Virus record (IMG/VR): IMGVR_UViG_3300045988_038444
Span: 1-43,689 of that record
Source of the DNA: a virus
Lineage: Duplodnaviria; Heunggongvirae; Uroviricota; Caudoviricetes
Reading direction: 5' to 3' (one strand)
DNA: 43,689 bases
Both the position numbers and the translations under genes were made by a program. The stretch's first letter is position 1. Each line of letters starts with the position of its first letter. Under the pieces are notes generated by a model that was not told the DNA's origin, made no database searches, and saw nothing but the letters and a program-made list of their open reading frames with translations. Shown here one piece after another: positions 1 through 42,570 of this stretch.

Positions 1-105
1 CCTGTAGCAGCGCCTACACCAGCGGCAGCACCTGTAGCAGCGCCTACACCAGCGGCAGCACCTGTAGCAGCGCCTACACCAGCGGCAGCACCTGTAGCAG
101 CGCCT
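1..105 (+). repeat. Tandem 30-bp repeat (cctgtagcagcgcctacaccagcggcagca, about 3.5 copies) inside a coding region; it encodes a (PVAAPTPAAA)n Pro/Ala-rich linker
   Basis: Exact tandem copies are visible at 1-30, 31-60 and 61-90, with a partial copy at 91-105; frame 1 stays open to the stop at 247-249. Confidence 0.85.
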
Positions 106-249
106 GTGAAGGTGATGACTGAAAAAGCAGGTGGTGTAACTTACGAACAGTTTATTGCGCAAGGTTGGAACGATGAACAACTGATCGCTAACGGTTATAT
201 GGTAATGACCACCCCGGCCCCGAATTTTCTCAACGGTAACGGTTACTGA
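1..249 (+). CDS. Partial CDS: C-terminal end of a repeat-linker protein (Pro/Ala linker followed by ...VKVMTEKAGGVTYEQFIAQGWNDEQLIANGYMVMTTPAPNFLNGNGY*). It probably continues the ORF that runs off the 3' end of the window
   Basis: Frame 1 is open from position 1 to TGA at 247-249. The Pro-rich PVA repeats resemble the VEPPVSR/APVAR repeats at 43500-43640. Confidence 0.45.
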   Translation, partial: PVAAPTPAAAPVAAPTPAAAPVAAPTPAAAPVAAPVKVMTEKAGGVTYEQFIAQGWNDEQLIANGYMVMTTPAPNFLNGNGY

Positions 250-291
250 TAGTTACTGGAACTGGGACGACATACCGCTTTAAACAGACAT

Positions 292-312
292 GGGGCCATA
301 GTGCCCCATTTA
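292..312 (+). promoter_or_regulatory. Conserved 21-mer GGGGCCATAGTGCCCCATTTA, copy 1, about 16 nt upstream of an ATG
   Basis: The same 21-mer (1 mismatch) recurs at 591-611 upstream of the next gene. It contains the short inverted repeat GGGGC..GCCCC. Confidence 0.4.
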
Positions 313-327
313 TCAACGAGGTATAAA

Positions 328-582
328 ATGAATCAAGAACAATTTGTACAAGAACAAGAAATGTTTGAAAAATTATCTTTAGAAGACCAATTGTCATACG
401 TAAAGAAACACGGAGTGATTCAAAAAAGATTTAATAGCGTTTTAAGAACTTCCCGTGAAAATTTTGGTAAATTTTATTTCGCGTATGAAGTGCAAAACGG
501 TTATGGGTGGCGATTTGCACGCGCTTCTACAAAAGAAGAAAGTGATCGGTTATATAATGAATGGGTCAATAAGCGTTCATAA
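328..582 (+). CDS. Hypothetical early protein (84 aa)
   Basis: ATG at 328 preceded by GAGG; the track ORF 301..582 is trimmed to the first ATG. Confidence 0.5.
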   Translation: MNQEQFVQEQEMFEKLSLEDQLSYVKKHGVIQKRFNSVLRTSRENFGKFYFAYEVQNGYGWRFARASTKEESDRLYNEWVNKRS

Positions 583-590
583 CTGAAAAC

Positions 591-611
591 GGGACCATAG
601 TGCCCCATTTA
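591..611 (+). promoter_or_regulatory. Conserved 21-mer GGGACCATAGTGCCCCATTTA, copy 2, 17 nt upstream of the polymerase ATG
   Basis: Direct comparison with 292-312. Confidence 0.4.
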
Positions 612-628
612 CTTATCAGGGTTTTATT

Positions 629-2485
629 ATGTCAGATGCTTACGTTCACGATATTGAAAACTATCCTAATGTTTTTCTGTTCGGTGCTATTCACGCGTTA
701 ACTGAAACACCTTATATTTTTGAGATTTCACATCGTCGCGATGATCGTCAGGCTTTTTACCTGTTCACAGAATATTTGCGTGAACATCGTGCTGAAGAAG
801 TTGGTTATAACAATCTGGGTTACGACTATCCTGTTCAGCATTCTATTTTGAACAACATCATGTATATCACCAACGCAGACATTTACAAAAAAGGTGATTC
901 GATAATTAACGCTGGTGATGAAAATCGTTTTGCTCATATGGTGTGGGAAAAAGACTGGATAGTTCCCCAACTTGATTTGTATAAAATTCATCATTTCGAC
1001 AATCAGGCAAAACGAACAAGTCTGAAAACACTTGAATTCAATATGAGAATGGAAAACATTGAAGACCTTCCGTTTACCCCAGGGACTTATTTAACCGATT
1101 CTCAAATTGATACGCTTCGTCAATATCTGATACACGATTTGAAAGCGACTTTGATGTTTTATAAACACAGTAAAAAGCTGATAGATTTTCGTCGTGAACT
1201 TTCTGCTAAATACGGTCGTAATTTCATGAACCATAATGACACGAAAATCGGTAAAGACTATTTCATTATGGAACTTGAAAAATCAGGTATTCAATGTTTC
1301 GAACCGTGTAGCAGAAAACCACGACAGACGCACAGACCATCAATCGCATTGAACAGTGTGATTTTCCCTTATGTCCGTTTTGAACAGCCTGAATTTAATC
1401 GTGTTCTTAACTGGTTACGTCAGCAGGTCATCACTGAAACAAAAGGTGTATTTACAGATTTAAGCGCAGACATTAACGGGTTCTCGTTTGATTTTGGTAC
1501 GGGTGGTATCCACGGGTCTATTGAATCTCAAACTATCAGGTCCACTGAAAATTATGTGATCATCGATCTGGACGTTGCCAGTTTTTACCCGAACCTTGCG
1601 ATCAGTAATGAACTTTATCCGGCACATCTGGGAAAACAATTTTGCACCATTTATAAAAATGTTTACGACATGCGTTCCAGTTACCCGAAAGGTACACCAG
1701 AAAATGCAATGTTAAAACTGGCGTTAAACGGTGTGTATGGTGACAGTAATAACGTATACAGTCCATTCTACGATCCTGCTTATACAATGGCTATTACGAT
1801 TAATGGACAGTTACTTTTGTGCATGTTGGCTGAAGAACTTCTGAAAATCCCTGGTTTGTCCATGATCCAGGCTAACACAGATGGTCTTACGGTTTACGTA
1901 CCACGAGTGTTTACCGGACAAGTAGAACAGGTTCGTCACGCGTGGGAAAAATTAACCAGACTCCAGCTTGAAGAAGCGATTTATGACGTGATGTTTATTC
2001 GCGATGTAAATAATTACATCGCTGTTTATGAAGGCGGTAAGAAAGTTAAACGTAAAGGCGCTTATTGTCACAGTGTTGATCTGGGTTGGCATCAAAACCA
2101 CAGTATGCAGGTTGTTGCAAAAGCGGCTGAAGCAGCACTGGTACACAATAAAGACATTCATGATTTTATAACATCACACGAAGACATTCACGATTTCATG
2201 TTAGTGACGAAAGTACCGCGTAACAGCAAGTTATTATGGGGTGATAAACAGGTTCAGAACATTACCCGTTATTACGTCAGTACAGATGGTGCACCTTTGA
2301 CAAAAGTCATGCCACCGCTGGCAAAATCACTGAAACTGAACCCTGATGCGCCTGAACGCCGCATGTCCGTGTGCAAAGGTTGGTTGACCACTGAGTGCAA
2401 CGACATGAAACGTTTTAACCGGGCAACGCTAAATTATGATTTTTACATCAAAGAAGCTGAAAAACTCGTTGCACCACTTCGGTAA
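629..2485 (+). CDS. Compact family-B DNA polymerase (618 aa)
   Basis: Pol motif A DLDVASFYPN, motif B KLALNGVYG and motif C NTDGLTVYV. Candidate exonuclease motifs: ExoI HDIEN near the N-terminus, ExoII HHFDN and ExoIII YLIHD. The size is phi29-like. Confidence 0.7.
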   Translation: MSDAYVHDIENYPNVFLFGAIHALTETPYIFEISHRRDDRQAFYLFTEYLREHRAEEVGYNNLGYDYPVQHSILNNIMYITNADIYKKGDSIINAGDENRFAHMVWEKDWIVPQLDLYKIHHFDNQAKRTSLKTLEFNMRMENIEDLPFTPGTYLTDSQIDTLRQYLIHDLKATLMFYKHSKKLIDFRRELSAKYGRNFMNHNDTKIGKDYFIMELEKSGIQCFEPCSRKPRQTHRPSIALNSVIFPYVRFEQPEFNRVLNWLRQQVITETKGVFTDLSADINGFSFDFGTGGIHGSIESQTIRSTENYVIIDLDVASFYPNLAISNELYPAHLGKQFCTIYKNVYDMRSSYPKGTPENAMLKLALNGVYGDSNNVYSPFYDPAYTMAITINGQLLLCMLAEELLKIPGLSMIQANTDGLTVYVPRVFTGQVEQVRHAWEKLTRLQLEEAIYDVMFIRDVNNYIAVYEGGKKVKRKGAYCHSVDLGWHQNHSMQVVAKAAEAALVHNKDIHDFITSHEDIHDFMLVTKVPRNSKLLWGDKQVQNITRYYVSTDGAPLTKVMPPLAKSLKLNPDAPERRMSVCKGWLTTECNDMKRFNRATLNYDFYIKEAEKLVAPLR

Positions 2486-5845: not shown

Positions 5846-6165
5846 TGCTTACTCCCGGTTTTACGTTGTTCCGCTTTCAAACCTTCAATAACAACTTTCA
5901 GGTCATTTGTTGACTGTGTTAGCTCTTTAACACTGGTGAGGATTTCAGCGTTCTGTGTTGCCTGATATTCAATTTTGATATCATGGACATCTACACGGGA
6001 TTCCACTCGTTTTGCCAGATTGAGCGCCTCGTGCGCATAGGTTTTTGCATCTACAATATCTTTTTCATTAGAATTGATTTGGTTTTGAGTTACCCCGTAA
6101 CCTACCAACCCCGTGGCAACAAATGCTATTATAGGCCAATACCTCAACACTGGGTTATCAGACAT
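5842..6165 (-). CDS. Lysis-associated membrane protein (holin/antiholin candidate, 107 aa)
   Basis: N-terminal TM helix then coiled-coil. It is the first gene of the lysis cassette, with AGGAG SD; the divergent tail-fibre ATG is only 27 bp away. Confidence 0.4.
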   Translation of the reverse strand: MSDNPVLRYWPIIAFVATGLVGYGVTQNQINSNEKDIVDAKTYAHEALNLAKRVESRVDVHDIKIEYQATQNAEILTSVKELTQSTNDLKVVIEGLKAEQRKTGSKQ

Positions 6166-6191
6166 TGTTCTACACTCCTGGAGACTTAAAG

Positions 6192-9164
6192 ATGGCTAAC
6201 TGTAACGATTATATCAGTGCTGATGATTTGAAAACAGGCAAACAAGCGATTTTACATATTGAACACGTTGCGAAAAGTCGTGATGCTAACGGTAATCATG
6301 CGTTGGATGTTACCGATACGATCCGTGATCAATCAGTTACCAACAAGACGCTTGATGGTTTAGAAAACCTGTACAATCAGGCTATATCTCAGGTTGGCTA
6401 TATCACAATGGATAGCTTCGAAGATGGCGCGACATTAACATTGCCTAACCAGGTGTTGCGATATAAGTCGACAGGAGAATATTACCGATGGGACGGTGAA
6501 TTTCCTAAAACCGTTTCTTCTGGTTCAACACCTGAAACTGCTGGTGGCGTTGGTCTTGGCGCGTGGGTTAGTGTTGGTGACGCTTCATTAAGAAGCCAGG
6601 TTTCTGACCCTGATGGCGCAACAAAATATCCAGATTTGCAGATCGCAAGATGGAGAGACACATTCGACCCGCGCGGGTGGAATGCAAAAGGTGATGGGGT
6701 CACCGATGACACCTCAGCGCTTAATGGCGTATTAAACGCCGCACCAGTTGGTCAGAAAATTAATGGCAATGGGAAGACATATAAGGTCACATCCCTGCCT
6801 GACATTAGTAGATTCGTCAATACTCGTTTTGTATATGAACGTATTCCTGGTCAGCCTCTTTTTTATGCTTCTGAAGATTTTATCCAGGGACAGTTATTTA
6901 AAATTACAGATACACCGTGGTACAACGCCTGGACGCAGGATAAAACGTTTGTATATGACAATGTCATCTATGCGCCTTTTATGGCTGGAGACCGCCATGG
7001 TGTAAATAACCTCCATGTTGCATGGGTTCGCTCAGGAGATGACGGGAAGACCTGGACAACGCCGGAATGGCTTACAGATTTACATGAAAACCATCCCACA
7101 GTTAACTATCACTGCATGAGTATGGGGGTTGTCAGAAATCGCCTTTTTGCTGTAATTGAGACGCGGACCGTGAGAGGAAATAAACTGCAGGTTGCAGAGT
7201 TGTGGGATCGCCCAATGAGTCGCAGCCTTCGCGTTTATGGTGGTATAACGAAAGCAGCAAATCAGCAAGTCGCTTATATTCGCATTACTGATCACGGATT
7301 ATTTGCTGGTGATTTTGTCAACTTCTCAAACTCTGGTGTTACAGGTGTTACCGGGAATATGACGGTGACTACTGTTATTGATAAAAATACTTTTACAGTT
7401 ACGACGCAAAATACCCAGGATGTGGATCAGAATAACGAGGGTGGATACTGGAGTTTTGGTACATCATTTCACTCGTCACCATGGAGAAAAACCAGTCTTG
7501 GAACTATTCCTTCTTTTGTTGACGGAAGCACTCCTGTTACTGAGATTCACAGTTTTGCGACGATTAGCGATAACAGTTTTGCTGTTGGCTACCATAATGG
7601 TGATATTGGTCCACGCGAGCTTGGGATACTCTATTTCTCTGATGCTTTCGGTTCTCCTGGTAGCTTTGTTCGCAGACGCATACCTGCAGAATATGAGGCG
7701 AATGCATCTGAGCCATGTGTAAAATATTATGATGGCATTCTGTATCTGACGACCAGGGGGACATTAAGTACTCAACCCGGTAGTTCATTGCACAGAAGCT
7801 CTGATTTAGGTATATCATGGAATTCTCTTCGCTTCCCAAATAATGTTCATCACTCAAACCTTCCTTTTGCCAAAGTTGGCGATGAGCTGATTATTTTTGG
7901 CAGTGAGCGCGCATTTGGTGAGTGGGAAGGAGGAGAACCTGATAACCGTTATGCAGGAAACTATCCAAGAACATTTATGACCAGAGTTAACGTCAATGAG
8001 TGGAGTCTGGATAATGTAGAGTGGGTTAATGTTACTGATCAGATTTATCAGGGCGGAATAGTTAACTCTGCGGTTGGTGTTGGTTCAGTTTGTATCAAAG
8101 ACAACTGGCTGTACTACATTTTCGGTGGGGAAGACTTTCTAAACCCATGGAGCATAGGGGATAACAACAAAAAATATCCTTATGTTCACGATGGTCACCC
8201 GGCTGATTTGTATTGTTTCAGGGTGAAAATTAAACAGGAAGAATTTGTTTCAAGGGATTTTGTCTACGGAGCCACTCCTAACAGAACGCTTCCTACTTTT
8301 ATGTCGACGTCAGGCGTGAGGACGGTTCCTGTACCCGTTGATTTCACAGATGATGTTGCCGTCCAGTCACTGACTGTCCATGCAGGTACATCAGGACAAG
8401 TTCGCGCGGAAGTCAAACTTGAGGGTAATTACGCCATTATTGCGAAGAAAGTACCGTCTGATAATGTTACCGCTCAGAGATTAATCGTTAGCGGCGGTGA
8501 AACAACGTCTTCAGCAGATGGTGCAATGATAACGTTGCATGGTTCCGGAAGCAGTACTCCACGTCGCGCGGTATATAACGCACTCGAACATCTTTTTGAG
8601 AACGGAGATGTTAAACCTCATCTTGATAATGTAAATGCTCTTGGTGGGCCTAGCAACCGTTTCACCACTGCATACCTCGGAAGCAACCCTATTGTTACTT
8701 CTAACGGAGAGAAGAAAACGGAGCCGGTAGTTTTTGATGATGCTTTCCTGGATGCCTGGGGTGACGTTCACTACATCATGTACAAGTGGTTAGATGCTAT
8801 TCAACTGAAAGGCAATGATGCTCGTATTCACTTCGGGGTTATTGCTCAGCAAATTCGTGATGTATTCATTGCACATGGTCTGATGGACGAAAACAGTACG
8901 GATTGTCGTTATGCCGTTCTGTGCTATGACAAGTATCCACGGATGACCGATATGGTATTTTCGCACAATGAAATCGTTGAACACACTGACGATGAGGGTA
9001 ATGTCACTACCACGGAAGAACCTGTATACACCGAGGTGGTTATTCACGAAGAGGGTGAGGAATGGGGTGTTCGGCCTGACGGAATTTTCTTTGCTGAAGC
9101 TGCTTATCAGCGAAGAAAACTGGAAAGAATCGAAGCCAGACTTTCTGCTCTTGAACAGAAGTAA
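6192..9164 (+). CDS. Tail fibre / putative endosialidase (endo-N-acetylneuraminidase) with a C-terminal intramolecular chaperone (peptidase S74-like) domain
   Basis: Two Asp-box (BNR) motifs, SGDDGKTW (~7030) and SSDLGISW (~7795). C-terminal ...DAWGDVHYIMYKWLDAIQLKGNDARIHFGVIAQQIRDVF...RLSALEQK is typical of autocleaving chaperone domains of endosialidases and T5 pb1. Start trimmed to ATG 6192 (GGAGA SD). Confidence 0.75.
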   Translation: MANCNDYISADDLKTGKQAILHIEHVAKSRDANGNHALDVTDTIRDQSVTNKTLDGLENLYNQAISQVGYITMDSFEDGATLTLPNQVLRYKSTGEYYRWDGEFPKTVSSGSTPETAGGVGLGAWVSVGDASLRSQVSDPDGATKYPDLQIARWRDTFDPRGWNAKGDGVTDDTSALNGVLNAAPVGQKINGNGKTYKVTSLPDISRFVNTRFVYERIPGQPLFYASEDFIQGQLFKITDTPWYNAWTQDKTFVYDNVIYAPFMAGDRHGVNNLHVAWVRSGDDGKTWTTPEWLTDLHENHPTVNYHCMSMGVVRNRLFAVIETRTVRGNKLQVAELWDRPMSRSLRVYGGITKAANQQVAYIRITDHGLFAGDFVNFSNSGVTGVTGNMTVTTVIDKNTFTVTTQNTQDVDQNNEGGYWSFGTSFHSSPWRKTSLGTIPSFVDGSTPVTEIHSFATISDNSFAVGYHNGDIGPRELGILYFSDAFGSPGSFVRRRIPAEYEANASEPCVKYYDGILYLTTRGTLSTQPGSSLHRSSDLGISWNSLRFPNNVHHSNLPFAKVGDELIIFGSERAFGEWEGGEPDNRYAGNYPRTFMTRVNVNEWSLDNVEWVNVTDQIYQGGIVNSAVGVGSVCIKDNWLYYIFGGEDFLNPWSIGDNNKKYPYVHDGHPADLYCFRVKIKQEEFVSRDFVYGATPNRTLPTFMSTSGVRTVPVPVDFTDDVAVQSLTVHAGTSGQVRAEVKLEGNYAIIAKKVPSDNVTAQRLIVSGGETTSSADGAMITLHGSGSSTPRRAVYNALEHLFENGDVKPHLDNVNALGGPSNRFTTAYLGSNPIVTSNGEKKTEPVVFDDAFLDAWGDVHYIMYKWLDAIQLKGNDARIHFGVIAQQIRDVFIAHGLMDENSTDCRYAVLCYDKYPRMTDMVFSHNEIVEHTDDEGNVTTTEEPVYTEVVIHEEGEEWGVRPDGIFFAEAAYQRRKLERIEARLSALEQK
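6204..6216 (-). promoter_or_regulatory. Candidate extended -10 promoter (CACTGATATAAT) for the lysis cassette, located inside the first codons of the tail-fibre gene
   Basis: The minus strand reads ...cagcacTGaTATAATcg... with the motif about 35-45 nt upstream of ATG 6165. The same motif recurs upstream of two other minus-strand genes. Confidence 0.4.
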
Positions 9165-9167
9165 TAA

Positions 9168-9197
9168 ACAAAACCCCGCTTCGGCGGGGTTGTTTTA
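9168..9197. terminator. Bidirectional rho-independent terminator
   Basis: Hairpin AACCCCGCTTCGGCGGGGTT flanked by an A-run and a T-run, lying between the convergent tail-fibre and SSB genes. Confidence 0.7.
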
Positions 9198-9200
9198 TCA

Positions 9201-9611
9201 TCAGAACGGAATGTCGTCTGAAAAGTCCATCGGAGGCTCATTGCCTCCTTGTGGGCTTTGTTGTTTTTGTGGCTGCTGTTGCTGATTTGTTACCCATCCG
9301 CCTTGAGGTTGTTGGCCTGATTGCTGGCGCGGTTGCTGACCAGAATCATCACGTTTACCACCAAGCATCTGCATAACGCCACCCATCTGTGGAATGACAA
9401 TCTCCGTAGTGTATCGGTCTACGCCGTTGCTGTCAGACCACTTACGAGTGTGCAGCTGTCCTTCGATATAAACCTGTGAACCTTTGCGAAGGTATTCTCC
9501 TGCAACTTCCGCAAGTTTCCCGAAGATGACTATGCGATGCCATTCAGTCTGTTCCTTCTTTTCTCCTGTTTGCTTGTCTTTCCACTGCTCAGATGTTGCA
9601 ACAAAAAACAA
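9201..9611 (-). pseudogene. ssb: N-terminally truncated SSB (residues ~35-178 of an E. coli-like SSB, with DDIPF tail); TTG start, no SD
   Basis: [39 protein letters not shown]...[11 protein letters not shown] is ~75-80% identical to E. coli SSB by recall. An in-frame TAA lies 9 nt upstream of the TTG, so the first OB-fold strand is absent. Confidence 0.6.
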
Positions 9612-9632
9612 GCCAACGGCTTAGATAACTTG

Positions 9633-12164
9633 TTATAAATCATCCTGATAATAACGTGCATCGTAATTGATGCACGTTAAACCTACCTGATAGTTATTAT
9701 CCCTTCCTGACGGTTCCATACTCTGAACAAGCATTGCTAATTTGCTACGCTCATCATCAGCACGGATTACATATGCTGTACGGTCACGCAACCATCCTGT
9801 ATAAATTTCTTCAGATGGCTGGTAAGCCATTATCACGGAAAATTTATCATCCCCGGCAGTTACAGGAATGTTTTCAAGTGTTCCCAGTCGGTGTGTTAAC
9901 GTTATGCTGTATGTATTACCCGTGGCGAACGTAACAGGATCGCTAAGAATAAGTGTTAAACCATCAACATCGACTACAATGCCTTCATGCTGTTTCATAC
10001 GAGTGTTATCAATCATATCCACACGCATGCCTGGAGTAGCCTGTAACCCGATACTAAGCGCTGTACATTCGTGAGTAATACGTTGGTAACGCAACTTATT
10101 CATCTCACGATTAGCGCGAATATTTGCAAGATATCGCGATTGACATGCGACAAGATCTATCTTATTGAGATTTGTTTCTTCACCTTTAGTTACATACAAA
10201 TACGATTTTTCATCATGATCGAAGTATTTAACCTGAACACCCGTATATTCTTTAGGTGGTGCGAAAGAACGTGTGCGTTTATCACTGTCAGGGATCTTAA
10301 ACGCGTGACCAAACTGCATTGCTGACTGGTCCTGCGGTAATTCAGGCCAGAAATACAATACACTACCGATCTGATACGGTTTAACATTCACCGTGTTACA
10401 GATAGTGTCCAATCCTTCTTCGTACGTCGTACTGTTGTTATCAAATGTATAACCAACTTCAATTGCTCGTTGGTCACCAAAATATTCAAGAATTTGTGCC
10501 TGAACAGCATATAAAGCATCACGATCAATGGTGTCTAATGTGCGACGACCAAATAAAGGATCTGTATGCATTGACATTACAACATCTGCAAAATTACTAC
10601 TTGCAACACCATCGTATACGCGCGTTGCAATCATGTTTAATTTACGTTCTTTTTGTTTCAGTGCAGCGTTTGTTGCTTTTGTCACTGTATGAATCAATGT
10701 CACATCACCATAGGAACGCGGAGAAACGTTCGTTATAGCGTATAAATCACGCCACTTGATATTATCAACAACAGATCCTTCAAAATCTTTATCTGTGTTT
10801 GATAGTCGTCTTACAGACACGTTGACAGGGCCGTCAAACGGGTTATCCACAATTAACGAATTACCTACGGCTTCTGTATAACGACCGCGGACAGACATAG
10901 AGTGTGTCACATTCGCTTTCACACCGTTCGGGTCCGACAAAACTACCTGGAAGTCACAGGTAAACGGATAAATGTCACCATCAGTTTTATACACTCCATT
11001 CTGTGCATAAAGATTAATCATCAACTTATCCGCACTGTCAATCAGATAAGGTCCGACAATATACGGCGTGGTACTGTCAAGAGACGGTGAAAACTTGTAT
11101 AAAATACTTCCGCTTCCTTCAATGGTTTCAAGTTCCCAGTAACCATCGTTTCGCAAATAAGCCTGTGTATATGCAGCCTGACCACTTTCAGACAGAGCAT
11201 CCCAACCTTCACGACCAGTAGTATCAATGATTAACGTATTCTCATCTGCATAAATAACGTCATATTCACCGGATAGATCATTACGTACATACGTGTTTAA
11301 CGGTAAAGTATTAGGTGTAAAACTGTAAAATTGTGATAAACGAATTTTACTACCGATTGGTGCACGTTCTGACCAGTCGATTGTAGTGTTATCGTCGCTG
11401 GAAATCGTAGTATCAATTTCACCTGTGCTGTAAATTTTAAAATTTGCTTTACTAATATCAGCATAGTTTGGTGGCTTAACTTCAGATCCGTCTGCTTCGT
11501 TCGATGACTTAGCAACCATGATCGGAAAAGTGTTAATATCAATCGCACCACCGATATTCATATATGGAGAACCATACCCTGGTGCATTACCTTTTTTATA
11601 AAAGTCTAATTTTTCACCGCTGATATTTACCGCAGGTGTAATACCATCACGAACGTCTTCGACTTCGTATTCACCAGCACCCAGACACAGAAACTGAACT
11701 TCGTATTCTGTTCGGTCAATGAAGATTCGGTAATCCATTAACAAATCAGGGTATACCAGTACACGACCACGAATATCAGAGATACGCTCACCCGGTCGCG
11801 AAGCATTAGTACGCCCCTGAAGCGCGTTGTTAGACGACGCTGAACGTGAGTTCTTAAGATTAGCCGATGCACTGGTATTCGGCATGAACAATTTTAAAAT
11901 GGGGTTTAAAATTGTGCTAATAACTTTCGTTATTGCACTAACCACTCCACCTTTTGGTAGTTCATAAATATGATAAACAGCGTCAGAATCAGTCAATACG
12001 CTGGGGTCAGTAACCCACTTTTGGGTAATATTTTCATCGTTTTTATAAATCAGTAACCCACGCGGGCGAACAGTACCCACGGGCCAGCGTTTCAGCATCC
12101 ATTCACCAAAGTCAACGTTATCAGCGTGTTCAACAGGATTAGTATGATAGATGACTTTAGACAC
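9633..12164 (-). CDS. Central tail fibre / tail tip host-specificity protein (lambda J-like, 843 aa)
   Basis: Large protein directly downstream of the K-like, L-like and M-like genes and the tape measure; called on synteny only. Confidence 0.5.
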   Translation of the reverse strand: MSKVIYHTNPVEHADNVDFGEWMLKRWPVGTVRPRGLLIYKNDENITQKWVTDPSVLTDSDAVYHIYELPKGGVVSAITKVISTILNPILKLFMPNTSASANLKNSRSASSNNALQGRTNASRPGERISDIRGRVLVYPDLLMDYRIFIDRTEYEVQFLCLGAGEYEVEDVRDGITPAVNISGEKLDFYKKGNAPGYGSPYMNIGGAIDINTFPIMVAKSSNEADGSEVKPPNYADISKANFKIYSTGEIDTTISSDDNTTIDWSERAPIGSKIRLSQFYSFTPNTLPLNTYVRNDLSGEYDVIYADENTLIIDTTGREGWDALSESGQAAYTQAYLRNDGYWELETIEGSGSILYKFSPSLDSTTPYIVGPYLIDSADKLMINLYAQNGVYKTDGDIYPFTCDFQVVLSDPNGVKANVTHSMSVRGRYTEAVGNSLIVDNPFDGPVNVSVRRLSNTDKDFEGSVVDNIKWRDLYAITNVSPRSYGDVTLIHTVTKATNAALKQKERKLNMIATRVYDGVASSNFADVVMSMHTDPLFGRRTLDTIDRDALYAVQAQILEYFGDQRAIEVGYTFDNNSTTYEEGLDTICNTVNVKPYQIGSVLYFWPELPQDQSAMQFGHAFKIPDSDKRTRSFAPPKEYTGVQVKYFDHDEKSYLYVTKGEETNLNKIDLVACQSRYLANIRANREMNKLRYQRITHECTALSIGLQATPGMRVDMIDNTRMKQHEGIVVDVDGLTLILSDPVTFATGNTYSITLTHRLGTLENIPVTAGDDKFSVIMAYQPSEEIYTGWLRDRTAYVIRADDERSKLAMLVQSMEPSGRDNNYQVGLTCINYDARYYQDDL

Positions 12165-16398: not shown

Positions 16399-17310
16399 AT
16401 GAGTAGGAAACGTTTAACCACAGAAGAGTTTATCACGCGTGCCCGTGAAGTTCATGGGCACAAATACGATTACTCACTAGTGGAGTATTTGAATTGGCGC
16501 ACACCTGTGAAAATCATCTGTCCTATACATGGAGTGTTTGAACAAATTCCTAATAATCATTTAAAAGGACGCAAGTGTTTATTCTGTGCAGGAAATCAAC
16601 AATCAAATACCAATGAATTTATCACAAGGGGGCGCGAAGTTCATGGGGGTAAGTATGGTTATTCGTTGGTGAAATATAAAGACTCTCGGACCAAAGTGAA
16701 AATCATTTGTCCAATACACGGAATGTTTGAACAACGTCCATATAGTCACTTGCAGCAAAAAGCAGGTTGCCCACAATGTGCTTGGGAACAATTGTCTGAA
16801 CAAAGACGTTTATCCGCCGAAGAATTCATTACTCGTGCTCGCGAAGTTCACGGGGACCGTTACGACTATTCGTTGGTGGAGTATGTTAACAATTCCACCC
16901 CTGTAAAAATTATTTGTTCAGAACACGGTGTGTTTGAACAGACACCGGGCAATCACACATTTATGAAAGCTGGCTGTCCCCAGTGCGCTGAAACAGGTTT
17001 TAATCCGTCAGAACCCGGCACGTTATATGTACTCGCTGATGATAAACAGTATCCCACTCTGATTAAAATTGGTATTACAAACGACTTAAAACAGCGACTA
17101 CGACAACTACAACGACGAACTCCGCATCTTGTGGTTAAACTTGTATCGTATCCGTTCCCACATGGCGCTGACGCTTACAAACTGGAACAAGAGGTACACA
17201 AGGTCTTTCACGAACTTAATGCGCGTCTCAAAGGCTTTGACGGTGCTACAGAGTGGTTTAAATACTCTCCTGCAATCCTCGATTACATAAATGAAAAAGC
17301 CCGGAACTAA
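16399..17310 (+). CDS. Homing-endonuclease-like protein HE-1: three N-terminal ~60-aa zinc-ribbon repeats + C-terminal T5orf172/GIY-YIG-like domain
   Basis: Three repeats of EEFITRAREVHGxKYDYSLVEY...KIICPIHGVFEQ...GCPQC. C-terminal GTLYVLADDKQYPTLIKIGITNDLKQRLRQLQRR. Inserted between the G/G-T chaperone genes and the tape measure. Confidence 0.6.
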   Translation: MSRKRLTTEEFITRAREVHGHKYDYSLVEYLNWRTPVKIICPIHGVFEQIPNNHLKGRKCLFCAGNQQSNTNEFITRGREVHGGKYGYSLVKYKDSRTKVKIICPIHGMFEQRPYSHLQQKAGCPQCAWEQLSEQRRLSAEEFITRAREVHGDRYDYSLVEYVNNSTPVKIICSEHGVFEQTPGNHTFMKAGCPQCAETGFNPSEPGTLYVLADDKQYPTLIKIGITNDLKQRLRQLQRRTPHLVVKLVSYPFPHGADAYKLEQEVHKVFHELNARLKGFDGATEWFKYSPAILDYINEKARN

Positions 17311-20759: not shown

Positions 20760-21184
20760 TGATTAAACCTCACCATTATTCCGGCTTTTAATATAGCACG
20801 TTCGACAAACCCGGAAGGTGTCTGTGTACTGCTACCACCATTGAGAACCCCAATGTAAGGAACGTTGTTAGTAATATGCAGTTCCTGACCATTAACTTTA
20901 ATACTGCTGATAGTGACTGTATCCTGTTCGATACGTGCTTTACTGGCTTCAACATTACCTGTTGGTGTATCAGGACTATTAGCGGGTTGCCCCTGATCGA
21001 ACCACCAGTTGTTGCTTGCCCAGCCACTCAATATTGGTGTACCATCAGGAGGCTCACTTATGAGTATGTTACGTAGTGTTAAAACATATCTAATGACTTG
21101 ACGATCCGTAAAATCTTGTAAGTCGGCTTTTATGTCTTTAAACACTCCAGTAATACGATTTATATCATTGATTTTGCTAGTCAT
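20756..21184 (-). CDS. Head-tail joining protein (HK97 gp10-like)
   Basis: Start trimmed to ATG 21184 to avoid overlap with the divergent HE-2; contains ISEPPDGTPILSGWASNNWW. Confidence 0.4.
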   Translation of the reverse strand: MTSKINDINRITGVFKDIKADLQDFTDRQVIRYVLTLRNILISEPPDGTPILSGWASNNWWFDQGQPANSPDTPTGNVEASKARIEQDTVTISSIKVNGQELHITNNVPYIGVLNGGSSTQTPSGFVERAILKAGIMVRFNQ

Positions 21185-21206
21185 TGACAAACCTAAAGGT
21201 AGAAAA

Positions 21207-22103
21207 ATGGGCGGTAAAAGACTAACCAAAGAACAACTAGAGCATAACATAAAAGATATTTGTCAATCAAAAAATTACAAATTTATAAAATGGAAAGACG
21301 GGTTTAAAAACAAAGAATCACGAATTATTTTATCTTGTGTTACACACGGGGAATGGGACACTAAATGTTATCATTTTTTGAATGGTTCTGGTTGTCCGAT
21401 CTGTGGTGGAACACGAACCACAAAAGGGTTAAGAATTGCACAGATTAAAGACAGTTTAACAAATTCTAAATCAAAGTTTATTAAATTTAAAACTAATTTT
21501 CAAAATGGAAATTCTGTTTGTTTGCTGAGCTGTATTGATCATGGTGGATGGGAGACAACAGTCAATAGACTAATCTTTACATCTGTTGATTGCCCGTTGT
21601 GTATAACGAATAGACAGAAAACTAAACAAGAACGAGAAATTGAAATAACAAATAGATGTAAAGAAACAGGGTTGTTTTTTAATAAGATATTCGACGAACA
21701 TCCGACATGGAAATCTAAAATATCATTAAAGTGTTCAACGCATGGTGATTTTGTTACAACAATTAATTCTTTTCTTAGTAAACAAAAAGGTTGTCCAAAC
21801 TGTAGTAAAACAGGGTTTAAAGCTGGTAAGTATGCAACACTTTATGTCTTGCGGTCCACATGCGGTCGTTACGTTAAAATAGGTATCAGTAATTGTGTAG
21901 AGCAAAGAATTAATACACTTCGTAGAAAAACACCATTTGATTTTCAAGTAATAGAAAAATTGAATGGACACGGGGCAACCATTCGTTCACTTGAAAAAGA
22001 TTTTCATTCTCATTTTGAATCTGCAGGATTAACCGGGTTCGATGGTTGTACAGAGTGGTTAAAATGGAATCCAAATATAACCACTCTGATACGGATGTTA
22101 TAG
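21207..22103 (+). CDS. Homing-endonuclease-like protein HE-2: three CxxHG...CPxC zinc ribbons + C-terminal T5orf172/GIY-YIG-like domain
   Basis: CVTHGEWDT..GCPICGG, CIDHGGWET..DCPLC and CSTHGDFVT..GCPNC. C-terminal ATLYVLRSTCGRYVKIGISNCVEQRINTLRRK...FDGCTEWLKWNPNITTLIRML. Start trimmed to ATG 21207. Confidence 0.6.
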   Translation: MGGKRLTKEQLEHNIKDICQSKNYKFIKWKDGFKNKESRIILSCVTHGEWDTKCYHFLNGSGCPICGGTRTTKGLRIAQIKDSLTNSKSKFIKFKTNFQNGNSVCLLSCIDHGGWETTVNRLIFTSVDCPLCITNRQKTKQEREIEITNRCKETGLFFNKIFDEHPTWKSKISLKCSTHGDFVTTINSFLSKQKGCPNCSKTGFKAGKYATLYVLRSTCGRYVKIGISNCVEQRINTLRRKTPFDFQVIEKLNGHGATIRSLEKDFHSHFESAGLTGFDGCTEWLKWNPNITTLIRML

Positions 22104-22481
22104 TTATACCGCTCCAACAGGATGAATAAATGCCATATCATCCCCTAACAATCGTGGGTTTTGACGATCAAGAAGGCGATATTCTTTACCACGTTCATCA
22201 ACCACAACATCACCCCGATCAGGAACAAATCGTGGTTCAAAACTCTGACTATCCATAATTACCATCGTTGTGGTTATTCTGGTCATAGTAGTCGGATCCC
22301 ACTTTTCTAATGGGTAAATATAACCACGACACGTATGCGATTCAGTAACGGTTGTACCCGGTAATGTAGGATTAGACGGGTTGGGAACTGTTATCACACG
22401 TTTTACCGTCAAATCCTCACCTACTTCAGCAAGTGCACGAGTAACACCTTTCAGGACACTTTGACGTTTGTCTGCCATCAC
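22104..22481 (-). CDS. Head closure / head-tail adaptor protein (putative)
   Basis: 125-aa protein in the connector module; called on synteny only. Confidence 0.35.
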   Translation of the reverse strand: MMADKRQSVLKGVTRALAEVGEDLTVKRVITVPNPSNPTLPGTTVTESHTCRGYIYPLEKWDPTTMTRITTTMVIMDSQSFEPRFVPDRGDVVVDERGKEYRLLDRQNPRLLGDDMAFIHPVGAV

Positions 22482-31419: not shown

Positions 31420-31923
31420 ATGACTAACCTGTATATCAAAAAACTAACACCCCACGCTGAACTTCCAACACGTGTAACACCAGACAGCGCCGGGTTAGAC
31501 GTTCGTGCTTGCCTATGGGAAGAATCGGTAACTATATTCACAGAATCAGGCGCTAAAGTGGAACGTCCGGTTGTTGCAGGAACAATCGCATTATGGCCCG
31601 GCGACCGCGCTATGATCCCCACTGGTCTGAAAATGTCAGTTGATAACGGATATTGCATTAAATTTTATCCACGTTCCGGCATGAGTCTTAAACACGGTTT
31701 GTCACTGATCAACTGTGTGGGTATCGGTGATCGTGATTACAAAGAAGAATACTACGTTACGCTGACTAACCACGGACAGAAATTACAGACTATCGCAGAC
31801 GGTGAACGCGTTTGCCAGCTTATGGTTGAACGTGTCGAACCTGTTAATCTGGTTGAAGTGGAAGAATTACCAGATGTTGATAGTCAGCGTAATGGCGGGT
31901 TTGGATCAACAGGACGGGTATGA
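31420..31923 (+). CDS. dut: dUTPase (deoxyuridine triphosphatase)
   Basis: Motifs AGLDVRA, YPRSGMSLKHG, GIGDRDYKEEYYV and QRNGGFGSTGR. Confidence 0.85.
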   Translation: MTNLYIKKLTPHAELPTRVTPDSAGLDVRACLWEESVTIFTESGAKVERPVVAGTIALWPGDRAMIPTGLKMSVDNGYCIKFYPRSGMSLKHGLSLINCVGIGDRDYKEEYYVTLTNHGQKLQTIADGERVCQLMVERVEPVNLVEVEELPDVDSQRNGGFGSTGRV

Positions 31924-38089: not shown

Positions 38090-38112
38090 TGTATAGTTTA
38101 CCACGGGTGATT
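38090..38112 (-). promoter_or_regulatory. Candidate late promoter motif caCCCGTGgTAAACTataca about 32 nt upstream of the TerL ATG
   Basis: Paired with the near-identical motif upstream of the tape-measure gene. Confidence 0.35.
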
Positions 38113-38125
38113 GGTGGTGACAGAG

Positions 38126-38170
38126 ATTTAAAATAATTCTTGACAGATTGCAGAAGTGGTGTCAGACTCT
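38126..38170 (+). promoter_or_regulatory. Early promoter copy P7 (-35 TTGACA 38140-38145)
   Basis: GATTTAAAATAATTCTTGACAGATTGCA. Confidence 0.65.
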
Positions 38171-38200
38171 GATTATCAATTGAACAGGAGTAACACAGGT

Positions 38201-38533
38201 ATGAATATTAAAGACCACAACGGATTATTTAAAGAAGTTCTTACCGTTCGTCTTGAACGTAATGCACAACCTGAATACGGGCAAAATGCCGTTTACTGTG
38301 TTCATTTTAAAGACACTACATTTTCATATTTTGAAGATGATGTAGACACTGTTGAAATTGGTGGCGACCTTTCAATATTCGTAAAACTTTATAATACTGA
38401 ACTTATGACTTACATGCTTCAAACGGTCCTGAATACGTTCGGTCGCACTGACGGGGTGTGTGTCACTACTCAGACAAAACAACAGGTGTTGCAAAACATC
38501 CGTGAACTACTGGAGCGCGTCGACCATGGGTGA
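38201..38533 (+). CDS. Hypothetical protein (110 aa)
   Basis: Start trimmed to ATG 38201 with AGGAG SD. Confidence 0.45.
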   Translation: MNIKDHNGLFKEVLTVRLERNAQPEYGQNAVYCVHFKDTTFSYFEDDVDTVEIGGDLSIFVKLYNTELMTYMLQTVLNTFGRTDGVCVTTQTKQQVLQNIRELLERVDHG

Positions 38534-40102: not shown

Positions 40103-41017
40103 ATGAACTTCTTTAAAAACGCTATTATTTATCGTCTGACTAATCCTATGGCACTAATGGCCCAGTTGCCAACACTGGAAGACAGCCTGTGTGCGTTTCA
40201 ATTCAATCCATGTGGTTCACAGGATATGGCGCGTACTGGTTGGGTTCCGGCAACTGAACAACATCATACGCTGGTTCACCAGGCTAATGGGCAATATCTG
40301 CTGACCATCCAGAAACAGGAAAAGATTATTCCTGGTCCGGTCATTAAACAGCATCTGAACGCGCGAATCGCCAAACTGGAAGCGGAACAGGCGCGTAAAC
40401 TGAAGAAAACAGAGAAAGATAGCCTGAAAGATGAAGTATTGCACAGTCTGTTACCACGAGCATTCGTTAAAAACAGTCGTACACAGTTGTGGATTGATAT
40501 CACTAGCGGGTTGATCGTGGTTGATGCGTCCAGTGCTAAACGGACTGAAGACGCATTAGCACTATTGCGTAAATCCCTGGGTAGTCTGCCAGTCGTCCCA
40601 CTGACAACTGAAAACCCTGTTGAACTGACAACAACGGAGTGGGTACGTTCAGGAAACGCGCCAACAGGTTTCACAATGGGTGATTCTGCGGAATTGAAAG
40701 CAATCCTGACTGACGGCGGTGTTGCACGCGTTAAAAAACAGGATTTAACCAGTGATGAAATAGCCACGCATATTGAAGCAGGAAAAGTTGTTACAAAACT
40801 GGCTCTGAACTGGCTGCAGCGGGTAACGTTTACGCTAACTGACAGCATGACGTTAAACCGTGTGAAATTCTGCGACGGGTTGCTCGACCAGAACGACGAT
40901 ATCGATCGTGAAGACAGTCTGACACGATTTGACGCTGATTTTGTACTAATGACAGGTGAACTTCAGGCGCTGATCAAACAACTTATCACTGCTTTGGGTG
41001 GGGAGGCTAAACGATGA
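40103..41017 (+). CDS. rdgC: Recombination-associated protein RdgC
   Basis: Strong end-to-end similarity to E. coli RdgC by recall (e.g. [105 protein letters not shown]). Confidence 0.85.
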
Positions 41018-41697: not shown

Positions 41698-42333
41698 TTA
41701 TTTAAGCGCTTTCTGATACAGTTGCGCGATGTCGTCAATAGTTGCACCTTCAGGAACACTCTGAACCACGTTTCCAACCACACCAGACAATTCCACACGG
41801 TCGATACTGTTCCCGGTGATCTTATCCAGTTGTTCAGACGCTTTTGCACGAGTTTTCGGGTCGAACAGTTCACGTGTCACCAGAATGTATCCACCCAGCA
41901 TGTAACGTTTGTAGCAAACTACGTACTGTTGTAGATGGCTGGGGATATCGTCGGTACTGTTCACCCACAGGTGTTTCGCTTCCGTGTCGTCTTCACCAGG
42001 AACGATGACACGCTGACAATACGGTTCCAGTAATTCTTCAGCCGTGCTTGCCGCTCGTTTCCACCACTCGACACGACTCGTTAACGATTCCCCTACAGAC
42101 TCAAGCGCATGACTTCCCATCGCGTCCAGATAGTTCAACACCTTCGTATTCGACAGGAGGCGATGTGCGGTCGTTGCAGCCGCTGCATCAGACGTGTGAC
42201 CCGGATAAGCCTCTAAAACACATCGCGTATTGCTGAAGCCGTTATTGACACGATCTAACCACAGGTTGGCGAACTTGAGCTGTTCCGGCGACAACTCCAG
42301 AGCAGCCCTTTTAGCCCGGTCTGAAATTTTCAT
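41698..42333 (-). CDS. Terminase small subunit (~211 aa)
   Basis: LSPEQLKFANLWLDRVNNGFSNTRCVLEAYPGHTSDAAAATTAHRLLSNTKVLNYLDAM fits the TerS HTH pattern. Start trimmed to ATG 42333 (GGGAGA SD). Confidence 0.65.
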   Translation of the reverse strand: MKISDRAKRAALELSPEQLKFANLWLDRVNNGFSNTRCVLEAYPGHTSDAAAATTAHRLLSNTKVLNYLDAMGSHALESVGESLTSRVEWWKRAASTAEELLEPYCQRVIVPGEDDTEAKHLWVNSTDDIPSHLQQYVVCYKRYMLGGYILVTRELFDPKTRAKASEQLDKITGNSIDRVELSGVVGNVVQSVPEGATIDDIAQLYQKALK

Positions 42334-42390
42334 AAATTTGTCTCCCATAAATTTTAAATTAGTTTCCCACAGATACCCACGGGTTGTCCA

Positions 42391-42570
42391 CACGCCCTGT
42401 TTTACAGCTAATACAATGTTAATATTAAGTTTACAGTTAGTGCACAATATGCATTAATTTTCGACTATATACATAAATACGTAGCCCATAATCACAATGA
42501 TTTCAAAGACTTGCATAAAAACATAGATTACAATAGGTATCTCCCAGACTTTTATTTTAGCTCTATTTAC
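42391..42570 (+). promoter_or_regulatory. Two copies of TTTACAGCTAATACA (42391-42405, 42556-42570), possibly -35 regions of rightward promoters
   Basis: Exact 15-mer repeat 165 bp apart. The first copy is followed at 16 nt by TATTAA. Confidence 0.3.

Follow-up and report, generated by a model that had tools for sequence, protein, structure and literature searches.

How does a phage copy its genome with a small family-B DNA polymerase (PolB) if it carries neither a helicase nor a primase? The question was raised by a metagenome contig of 43,689 bp (IMG/VR record IMGVR_UViG_3300045988_038444; the whole contig is called the window here), in which an open reading frame (ORF) was interpreted, from the letters alone, as an orphan polymerase of this kind. 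We found that the ORF encodes a genuine compact proofreading family-B DNA polymerase and that the paradox of the orphan enzyme vanishes because the window is a truncated contig. Very probably this is the replicative, primer-dependent, proofreading PolB of a Sashavirus, whose partner genes lie off the contig. The gene itself is the following:

629..2485, plus strand: family-B DNA polymerase gene of the compact 'crAss-like' PolB type, ATG start, 618 aa

The sequence-only reading of a 618-aa family-B polymerase with intact proofreading was exact as to the ORF and is borne out by profile and structure comparisons. In any other frame or strand of the ORF listing, the longest alternative ORF overlapping 629..2485 has only 88 aa. 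The assignment to PolB relies on profile and structure searches because a search of the protein against Pfam-A, including DNA_pol_B and DNA_pol_B_exo, returned zero families at E ≤ 1; the polymerase family is too divergent for the Pfam models. Among the PHROGs it matched phrog_1252, 'DNA polymerase', from end to end (E 6e-215). A single-sequence phmmer search against PDB yielded marginal matches only (E 0.014) and a profile was needed. In a general homologue search the 120 listed matches were all ≥99% identical and unusable for a profile; hence we drew 49 homologues at 43–54% identity from a library of 50%-identity representatives and aligned them with the query, giving the 50 sequences to which all counts of conservation below refer. 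The resulting family profile gave 64 matches at E ≤ 1 against all PDB sequences, and the 60 listed were all family-B polymerases: Thermococcus/Pyrococcus enzymes scored best (E 4e-7), followed by African swine fever virus polymerase, Pol alpha, Pol II, RB69 and Pol epsilon.

An AlphaFold2 model built from the family alignment (pLDDT 95.9, pTM 0.91) showed the exonuclease (Exo) plus palm/fingers/thumb fold. The Foldseek check that had been proposed for the ORF confirmed this polymerase fold: the top 50 PDB matches were PolBs throughout (~1e-15). Taken together, the best profile and structure matches were primer-dependent enzymes (Thermococcus 9N/KOD/Tgo, Pol alpha, Pol epsilon, E. coli Pol II and RB69 gp43). 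The nearest structures in BFVD were phage polymerases of 600–670 aa with TM up to 0.93, including those of the crAss-like phages cr3_1, cr11_1, cr127_1, phi14:2, Fpv1 and crAssphage. The family is large: when 1.84 billion representatives at the 50% identity level were scanned with HMMER, 4,851 relatives passed E ≤ 1e-3, of which 2,063 also passed E ≤ 1e-30, and most are 580–750 aa long; tblastn found homologues in 969 GenBank phage records (706 full-length), uncultured phage cr1_1 among them. A very abundant compact PolB family with unusual active-site motifs is unrecognised by Pfam.

The domains and motifs on which the assignment rests are listed here with window coordinates where these apply; all lie on the plus strand:

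629..1168: 3′-5′ proofreading exonuclease domain of the DEDDy type, aa 1–180, with no separate N-terminal domain before it
650–658: ExoI, D8-I-E10 ('HDIEN'); D8 and E10 invariant
809–826: ExoII, N61-N62-L-G-Y-D66; D66 invariant, residue 65 Tyr or Phe
aa 130–135: (S/T)Lx2h-like motif T130–L135; S131-L132-K133 conserved
1124–1138: ExoIII, Y166-LIH-D170 ('YLIHD'); Y166 and D170 each in 49 of 50
1169..1528: linker from Exo domain to palm, aa 181–300, ~55–65 aa longer than in phi29 and Thermococcus PolB
within the linker: motifs conserved in the family alignment, PRQTxR 231–236, ITETKGVF 267–274 and GxGGIHGS 290–297
1565..1591: motif A, D313-L-D315-V-A-S-F-Y-P, catalytic Asp D315; D315 and Y320 in 50 of 50, D313 in 49
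1715..1741: motif B, K363-LALNGVYG; K363 and G371 in 50 of 50, N367 in 49
1868..1885: variant motif C, Q414-A-N416-T417-D418-G419; Q414, N416, T417, D418 and G419 all in 50 of 50
2006..2059: variant KxY region, V460-N461-N-Y463, then K474-R-K-G477 on the next strand; N461, Y463 and K474 in 50 of 50

The residues of the three Exo motifs (D8/E10, N62..Y65-D66 and Y166..D170) are 98–100% conserved, and each motif sits in its expected secondary-structure element of the model. ExoI and ExoIII had been placed correctly from the sequence, and motifs A, B and C, which had been described as clear, carry key residues that are invariant or nearly so. ExoII had been sought in HHFDN (121–125); this segment, which comes after strand 114–116, is conserved in the family but is not ExoII. 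In the model N62–D66 begin helix 62–75 directly after strand 56–59, with N61 just ahead, and this helix start would be the site expected for ExoII in a DEDD fold. The Exo domain takes up ~180 residues rather than the ~300 N-terminal residues first allotted to the Exo set. In the linker G292-G293-x-H295 are among the conserved positions, and GxGGIHGS, which lies 22 residues ahead of the Asp of motif A, may by this placement be the equivalent of the YxGG/A motif.

The polymerase motifs were anchored on Thermococcus PolBs in the HMMER alignments. Motif A aligns with LDFRSLYPS and K363 of motif B with K487; from motif B through motif C the alignment is ungapped, and it continues through the KxY strand. 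N416 and D418 fall on chain positions 540 and 542, i.e. on both Asp of the Thermococcus 'DTD'. The first Asp of motif C is thus replaced by an invariant Asn (N416, window 1874–1876) and the second is kept (D418). Y463 aligns with the Tyr of 'KKKY', and the canonical Lys of KxY is changed to N461. The enzyme accordingly carries NTDG and NxY where archaeal and eukaryotic PolBs carry DTD(S/G) and KxY. At the position of K474-R-K-G Thermococcus has T-T-R-G, and in a comparison with the KH-X8-KTRG that stands in for KxY in primer-independent PolBs (piPolBs) the KH dipeptide was not recognised.

In order to place this architecture, motif spacings were compared with those of phi29 polymerase (from the GenBank translation, 572-aa numbering) and of Thermococcus PolB (from the ungapped HMMER alignment):

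ExoI to ExoII: 58 in the window protein, 54 in phi29
ExoII to ExoIII: 104 in the window protein, 103 in phi29
ExoIII to motif A: 145 in the window protein, 80 in phi29
motif A to motif B: 48 in the window protein, 134 in phi29, 83 in Thermococcus
motif B to motif C: 55 in the window protein, 75 in phi29, 55 in Thermococcus
motif C to C-terminus: 200 in the window protein, 117 in phi29

The earlier description as phi29-scale is fair for length and for Exo-motif spacing: the Exo residues of phi29 are D9/E11, D63 and Y162/D166, against D8/E10, D66 and Y166/D170 here. Strands begin at residue 4 of the model and ExoI at residue 8, therefore no N-terminal domain precedes the exonuclease. In this the enzyme resembles phi29 and differs from T4-type, archaeal and eukaryotic PolBs; relative to the archaeal and eukaryotic primer-dependent enzymes a domain of ~130 aa is missing. 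The extra length over phi29 sits in the Exo-to-palm linker (181–300) and the thumb, with 65 additional residues between ExoIII and motif A and 83 in the thumb/C-terminal region. Motif B follows motif A by only 48 aa, so that the fingers are short (~35 aa shorter than in Thermococcus) and leave no room for TPR1. TPR1 and TPR2 are the insertions that define protein-primed and primer-independent PolBs (PMC5695915). Insertions of this type had been suggested as something to look for; judged by motif spacing both are absent. TPR1 would lie between motifs A and B, where only 48 aa separate D315 from K363 (134 in phi29), and TPR2 between motifs B and C, where the 55 aa of the window protein (75 in phi29) align with Thermococcus PolB without a gap. 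An hhalign comparison of the family profile with phi29 polymerase was not significant (probability 0.3%), yet it still paired ExoII, the SLK motif and motif B.

The ORF is already known from cultured phages. Megablast gave matches in 24 phage records, of which 22 cover at least 80% of the ORF, and those that are annotated all say DNA polymerase. Ten records have 97.2–97.7% nucleotide identity, including Sasha, Sergei, Solent, AVIO78A, PJ16, Bas82, PDP46 and two 'Sashavirus' genomes; identity to Sashavirus is 97–98% over all 1,857 nt and ~84% to SP069/SP-062. By nucleotide identity this is the same gene as the DNA polymerase of Sashavirus/Nonanavirus (Salmonella phages Sasha, Sergei, Solent and 9NA; Escherichia phages Bas82, PJ16 and AVIO78A). 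The source phage, to judge from the same matches, is a Sashavirus, a 9NA-like siphophage of E. coli/Salmonella; elsewhere, too, the window is collinear with Sashavirus genomes of 53–59 kb. As an annotated polymerase of a cultured phage genus, the gene in itself has small significance.

The enzyme family has been catalogued as well. In the excerpts of Kazlauskas 2020 (PMC7544198) on which we draw, the 9NA homologue UniRef50_A0A060D1M7 (633 aa) falls in the 'PolBmain' cluster and not in pPolB+piPolB, the PolBs of crAss-like viruses are tabulated with the same motifs as the window protein, and the crAss-like group within the EpsilonN-like clade is described as divergent in motif C and KxY compared with other EpsilonN-like PolBs. 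This hallmark is found in the window protein as the invariant NTDG and N461-x-Y463, and BLASTP aligned the protein with a crAss-like virus PolB (a fragment) at 40% identity (E 3e-56). By similarity and motifs the polymerase is a member of the compact crAss-like PolB group of that catalogue. The crAss-like PolBs come from crassviruses, whereas the window belongs to an enterobacterial siphovirus; some polymerases of crAss-like and related phages appear as two ORFs or fragments in databases, in contrast to the single chain found here. Sashavirus, Nonanavirus and Gorganvirus form a clade that encodes PolB and in which PolA has once taken its place in situ (Yutin et al. 2024, PMC11348598). The nearest biochemically characterised relative appears to be GP55 of Lactococcus phage 1706, the only one found in the two divergent sister groups. 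According to the abstract of the report on this protein of the HelPrimPolB group (PMC12205980), GP55 has PolB polymerase, intrinsic 3′-5′ exonuclease, AEP-primase and helicase activities, and its de novo DNA synthesis is attributed to the primase and polymerase activities combined. The two enzymes are likened by group only: helicase, primase and PolB are fused in GP55, whereas the PolB in the window (618 aa) and the primase-helicase of its relatives (784 aa) are separate proteins.

Why, then, does the window lack the partners of a replicative polymerase? Pfam and PHROG scans covered 27 different non-structural or unassigned window ORFs, and no helicase, primase, clamp or terminal protein was found among them. 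The contig is incomplete, however, with about three quarters of a genome of ~53–59 kb. The longest contig on which the exact protein occurs measures 43,689 bp, the length of the window, which is therefore a whole JGI metagenome contig. On PJ16 it maps from ~41,973 down to 1 and then from 57,745 down to 56,748, which leaves ~14.7 kb missing. Both of its ends coincide with tandem repeats:

1..105, no strand assigned: 30-bp tandem repeat, 3.5 perfect copies (TRF, 100% matches), encoding (PVAAPTPAAA)n; assembly breakpoint
1..246, plus strand: 3′ end of a gp2.5-like SSB/annealing gene, last 81 codons and stop, cut by the contig end
43500–43637: 6.6 copies of a 21-bp tandem repeat (93% matches) in a region homologous to PJ16_098 (hypothetical); the contig ends ~50 bp further right

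The 30-bp repeat encodes the linker of the gp2.5-like SSB/annealing protein; residues 256–343 of Bas82_0067 match window 1–246 with 91% identity (tblastn, E 1e-41). Genomes differ in the number of copies: Bas82 (38093–38382) has 9.7 and the Logan metagenome contig L003 has ~1.7, and the window retains at least 3.5 at its edge. Two further metagenome contigs with this polymerase (L004 and L005) also begin 250–390 bp upstream of the gene, and the repeat is a recurrent contig breakpoint. The absence of helicase and primase from the window is accounted for by the contig end, which falls in a tandem repeat of the SSB gene. More generally, claims of absence on metagenome contigs need a check of completeness.

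A replication module occupies the next 8 kb beyond the left edge in all complete relatives examined and in L003, where the same module adjoins a polymerase that differs from that of the window at 2 of 618 residues. In Bas82 and PJ16 (97% nucleotide identity) the polymerase strand carries the gp2.5-like SSB, a 381-aa protein and a ~250-aa protein, and the divergent strand carries a 553-aa 'DNA helicase', a 168-aa exonuclease and a 784-aa 'DNA primase'. Pfam assigned DUF2800 and a PD-(D/E)XK nuclease domain to the 381-aa protein and identified the 168-aa protein as an Rv2179c-like DEDD 3′-5′ exonuclease. Matches to ResIII, Helicase_C, DEAD and SWI2_SNF2 mark the 553-aa protein as an SF2 helicase. 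The 784-aa protein combines an NrS-1 polymerase HBD domain with D5_N and DUF5906 (SF3 helicase); its first 311 residues match 7ola, a primase chain of 797 aa, with E 3e-34 and the PDB entries 6a9w, 6k9a and 7rr3 with E ~1e-30. The PDB table labels these four entries 'Primase' or 'DNA primase' only; we take 6a9w, 6k9a and 7rr3 to be the NrS-1 primase-polymerase. The 784-aa protein is predicted to be an NrS-1-like AEP primase-polymerase fused to an SF3 helicase. When the proteins of this module were searched against the window by tblastn, helicase, primase and nuclease gave no match; only the SSB did, with its last 88 residues at 1–246.

The statement that no primase, helicase, clamp or terminal protein is present therefore stands for the window as scanned; for the phage it appears to be wrong by every available proxy as far as helicase and primase are concerned, which in relatives lie beyond the left end. 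The helicase-primase that might have been overlooked is found off the window rather than among its small ORFs. Nor does the priming mode look as open as had been stated, given a module with a primase-polymerase upstream of the polymerase in Bas82, PJ16 and L003.

From the complete relatives we infer primer dependence, the division of labour among the partners and the presence of the same module in this phage. The PolB would extend primers from the separate 784-aa AEP primase-polymerase/SF3 helicase, while the gp2.5-like SSB would coat displaced strands and the SF2 helicase would assist the polymerase. The DUF2800 PD-(D/E)XK nuclease and the SSB/annealing protein would probably feed recombination-dependent concatemer formation for pac-headful packaging, and the SF2 helicase, the DUF2800 nuclease and RdgC may serve recombination-dependent replication and concatemers. 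Phage 9NA is known to package by a pac-headful mechanism, with a pac fragment and a genome that assembles as a circle, and 9NA-like phages are virulent (PMC4153490).

Several points weigh against a replicative, primer-dependent PolB. The content of the missing ~14.7 kb is taken from relatives. Motif C without its first Asp and KxY without its Lys are atypical of characterised primer-dependent PolBs and partly piPolB-like. The blank result in Pfam-A has to be counted here as well, a literature search found neither biochemistry nor structures of the compact crAss-like PolB group, and no processivity factor or clamp was identified in the window or in the annotation of the relatives.

The NrS-1 primase-polymerase has been reported to make primers de novo, and the NrS-1 enzyme primes with dNTPs. 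By homology of the 784-aa partner to this enzyme, replication in these phages might be DNA- rather than RNA-primed, with the PrimPol-helicase handing off to a minimal PolB whose altered primer-terminus site would be adapted to the hand-off; we consider this rather unlikely. The primase concerned lies outside the window.

The altered active site also bears on whether the enzyme could start DNA de novo like a piPolB, with a separate primase dispensable or auxiliary. QxNTDG resembles the SxTTDG of piPolBs in having lost the first Asp and in ending in Gly, the Lys of KxY is likewise gone (N461-x-Y463), and no biochemistry was found for the compact group. A motif C that lacks its first Asp is, however, not diagnostic of a piPolB, because the B2/G2 PolB groups share this loss, according to the same excerpts of PMC7544198, and motif C diverges in the crAss-like group. 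The loss is compatible with activity because the piPolB (TTDG) is an efficient polymerase (PMC5695915). An extra Asp, D313 (49 of 50 sequences; D313-L-D315, window 1565–1573), lies on the same strand two residues before the catalytic D315; it may compensate for the motif C Asn as a metal ligand, in analogy to the D(K/R) idea put forward for the B2/G2 PolBs (PMC7544198). Self-priming is very unlikely because the window protein has neither TPR1 nor TPR2, both of which piPolBs possess (PMC5695915), and because the module retains, in complete relatives, an AEP primase-polymerase/helicase that is both large and dedicated. Furthermore, the family groups with PolBmain and the crAss-like PolBs instead of pPolB+piPolB in the excerpts of PMC7544198, and de novo synthesis by GP55 is credited, in the abstract of PMC12205980, to its AEP primase together with the polymerase.

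An accessory role in repair or translesion synthesis, like that of E. coli Pol II, with the host replisome copying the genome, would fit the presence of E. coli Pol II among the structural matches and the lack of a clamp or processivity factor among the genes found. This is a most improbable reading because of the position of the gene and the swapping of PolA and PolB in its slot: the replication module around it (SSB, nuclease, two helicases and primase-polymerase) is complete and syntenic in all relatives examined, and the in-situ exchange of PolB and PolA in the clade (PMC11348598) is as expected for the slot of a replicase. The virulence of 9NA-like phages (PMC4153490) and the retention of all proofreading residues also speak against a mere repair enzyme.

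Protein priming as in phi29, with a terminal protein at linear genome ends and no need for primase or helicase, deserves practically no credence and is essentially excluded because motifs A and B stand only 48 aa apart and motifs B and C only 55 aa, which leaves no room for TPR1 and TPR2, because the neighbours of the polymerase gene are SSB and hypothetical/NinX-like genes and not the terminal protein gene that phi29 has, because the 9NA homologue sits in PolBmain and not in pPolB+piPolB (PMC7544198, excerpts) and because 9NA has a pac fragment and circular assembly (PMC4153490); the non-significant profile match to phi29 polymerase, the higher rank of primer-dependent PolBs than of phi29 in every search and the primase-helicase of the relatives point the same way.

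Between the SSB and polymerase genes the window carries a segment of its own:

292..312, plus strand: copy 1 of a 21-nt GC stem-loop element, GGGGCCATAGTGCCCCATTTA, after the SSB gene
328..582, plus strand: 84-aa ORF between the SSB and polymerase genes, bracketed by the stem-loop copies
591..611, plus strand: copy 2 of GGGGCCATAGTGCCCCATTTA, 17 nt upstream of the polymerase start codon

The element occurs in the window in these two copies only, where zero are expected by chance; in a pattern scan the stem-loop of copy 1 also scored as terminator-like on the minus strand (309..290). The 84-aa ORF has neither a Pfam nor a PHROG match, and window 313–590 has no counterpart in Bas82, PJ16 or L003. 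The flanking gene order is the same in the Sashavirus relatives, and the ORF with its duplicated stem-loop is extra in the window. The arrangement suggests that a small gene cassette has been inserted here, through duplication of the intergenic stem-loop.

In the relative PJ16 the SF2 helicase gene (7678–10356) encodes 892 aa instead of 553, with an intein (Hint plus LAGLIDADG homing endonuclease) within the ResIII ATPase domain; this intein-bearing helicase is annotated as a 'type 1 site specific restriction modification protein'.

The ORF scans of the window also yielded a DNA methylase, a nucleoside deoxyribosyltransferase-like protein and NinX, besides these features:

40103..41017, plus strand: RdgC recombination-associated protein (PF04381, E 7e-115)
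31420..31923, plus strand: dUTPase (PF00692, E 3e-18)
9201..9611, minus strand: bacterial-type OB-fold SSB (PF00436, E 3e-26; match begins at profile position 28 of 104)
41698–42447, minus strand: small terminase subunit (phrog_51)
16399–17310 and 21132–22103, plus strand: ORFs with T5orf172/MUG113 domains, treble-clef zinc-finger-like, and CapR/DUF723 domains
6165–9164, plus strand: complete endosialidase tailspike (Tail_spike_N, End_N_terminal, beta-propeller, beta-barrel, End_tail_spike and S74 chaperone)

Two of these bear on further replication genes named in the sequence-only reading. Its 'truncated ssb' may be the bacterial-type SSB at 9201–9611; the SSB is there, and its OB fold may be N-terminally shortened, as the Pfam match from profile position 28 would suggest. 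Its 'initiator-like ORF', which we guess to be 41698–42447, turned out to be the small terminase subunit. The bacterial-type SSB gene has the tail tip gene on one side and the tailspike gene on the other, remote from the replication module. The two T5orf172/MUG113 ORFs, which we read as putatively homing-endonuclease-like, run against the genes of the tail and head blocks in which they are embedded, and the one at 21132–22103 falls in a stretch (~21170–22110) without a megablast match in Bas82. The endosialidase tailspike presumably indicates a host with a K1 polysialic-acid capsule; the 9NA tailspike we take to be an O-antigen endorhamnosidase.

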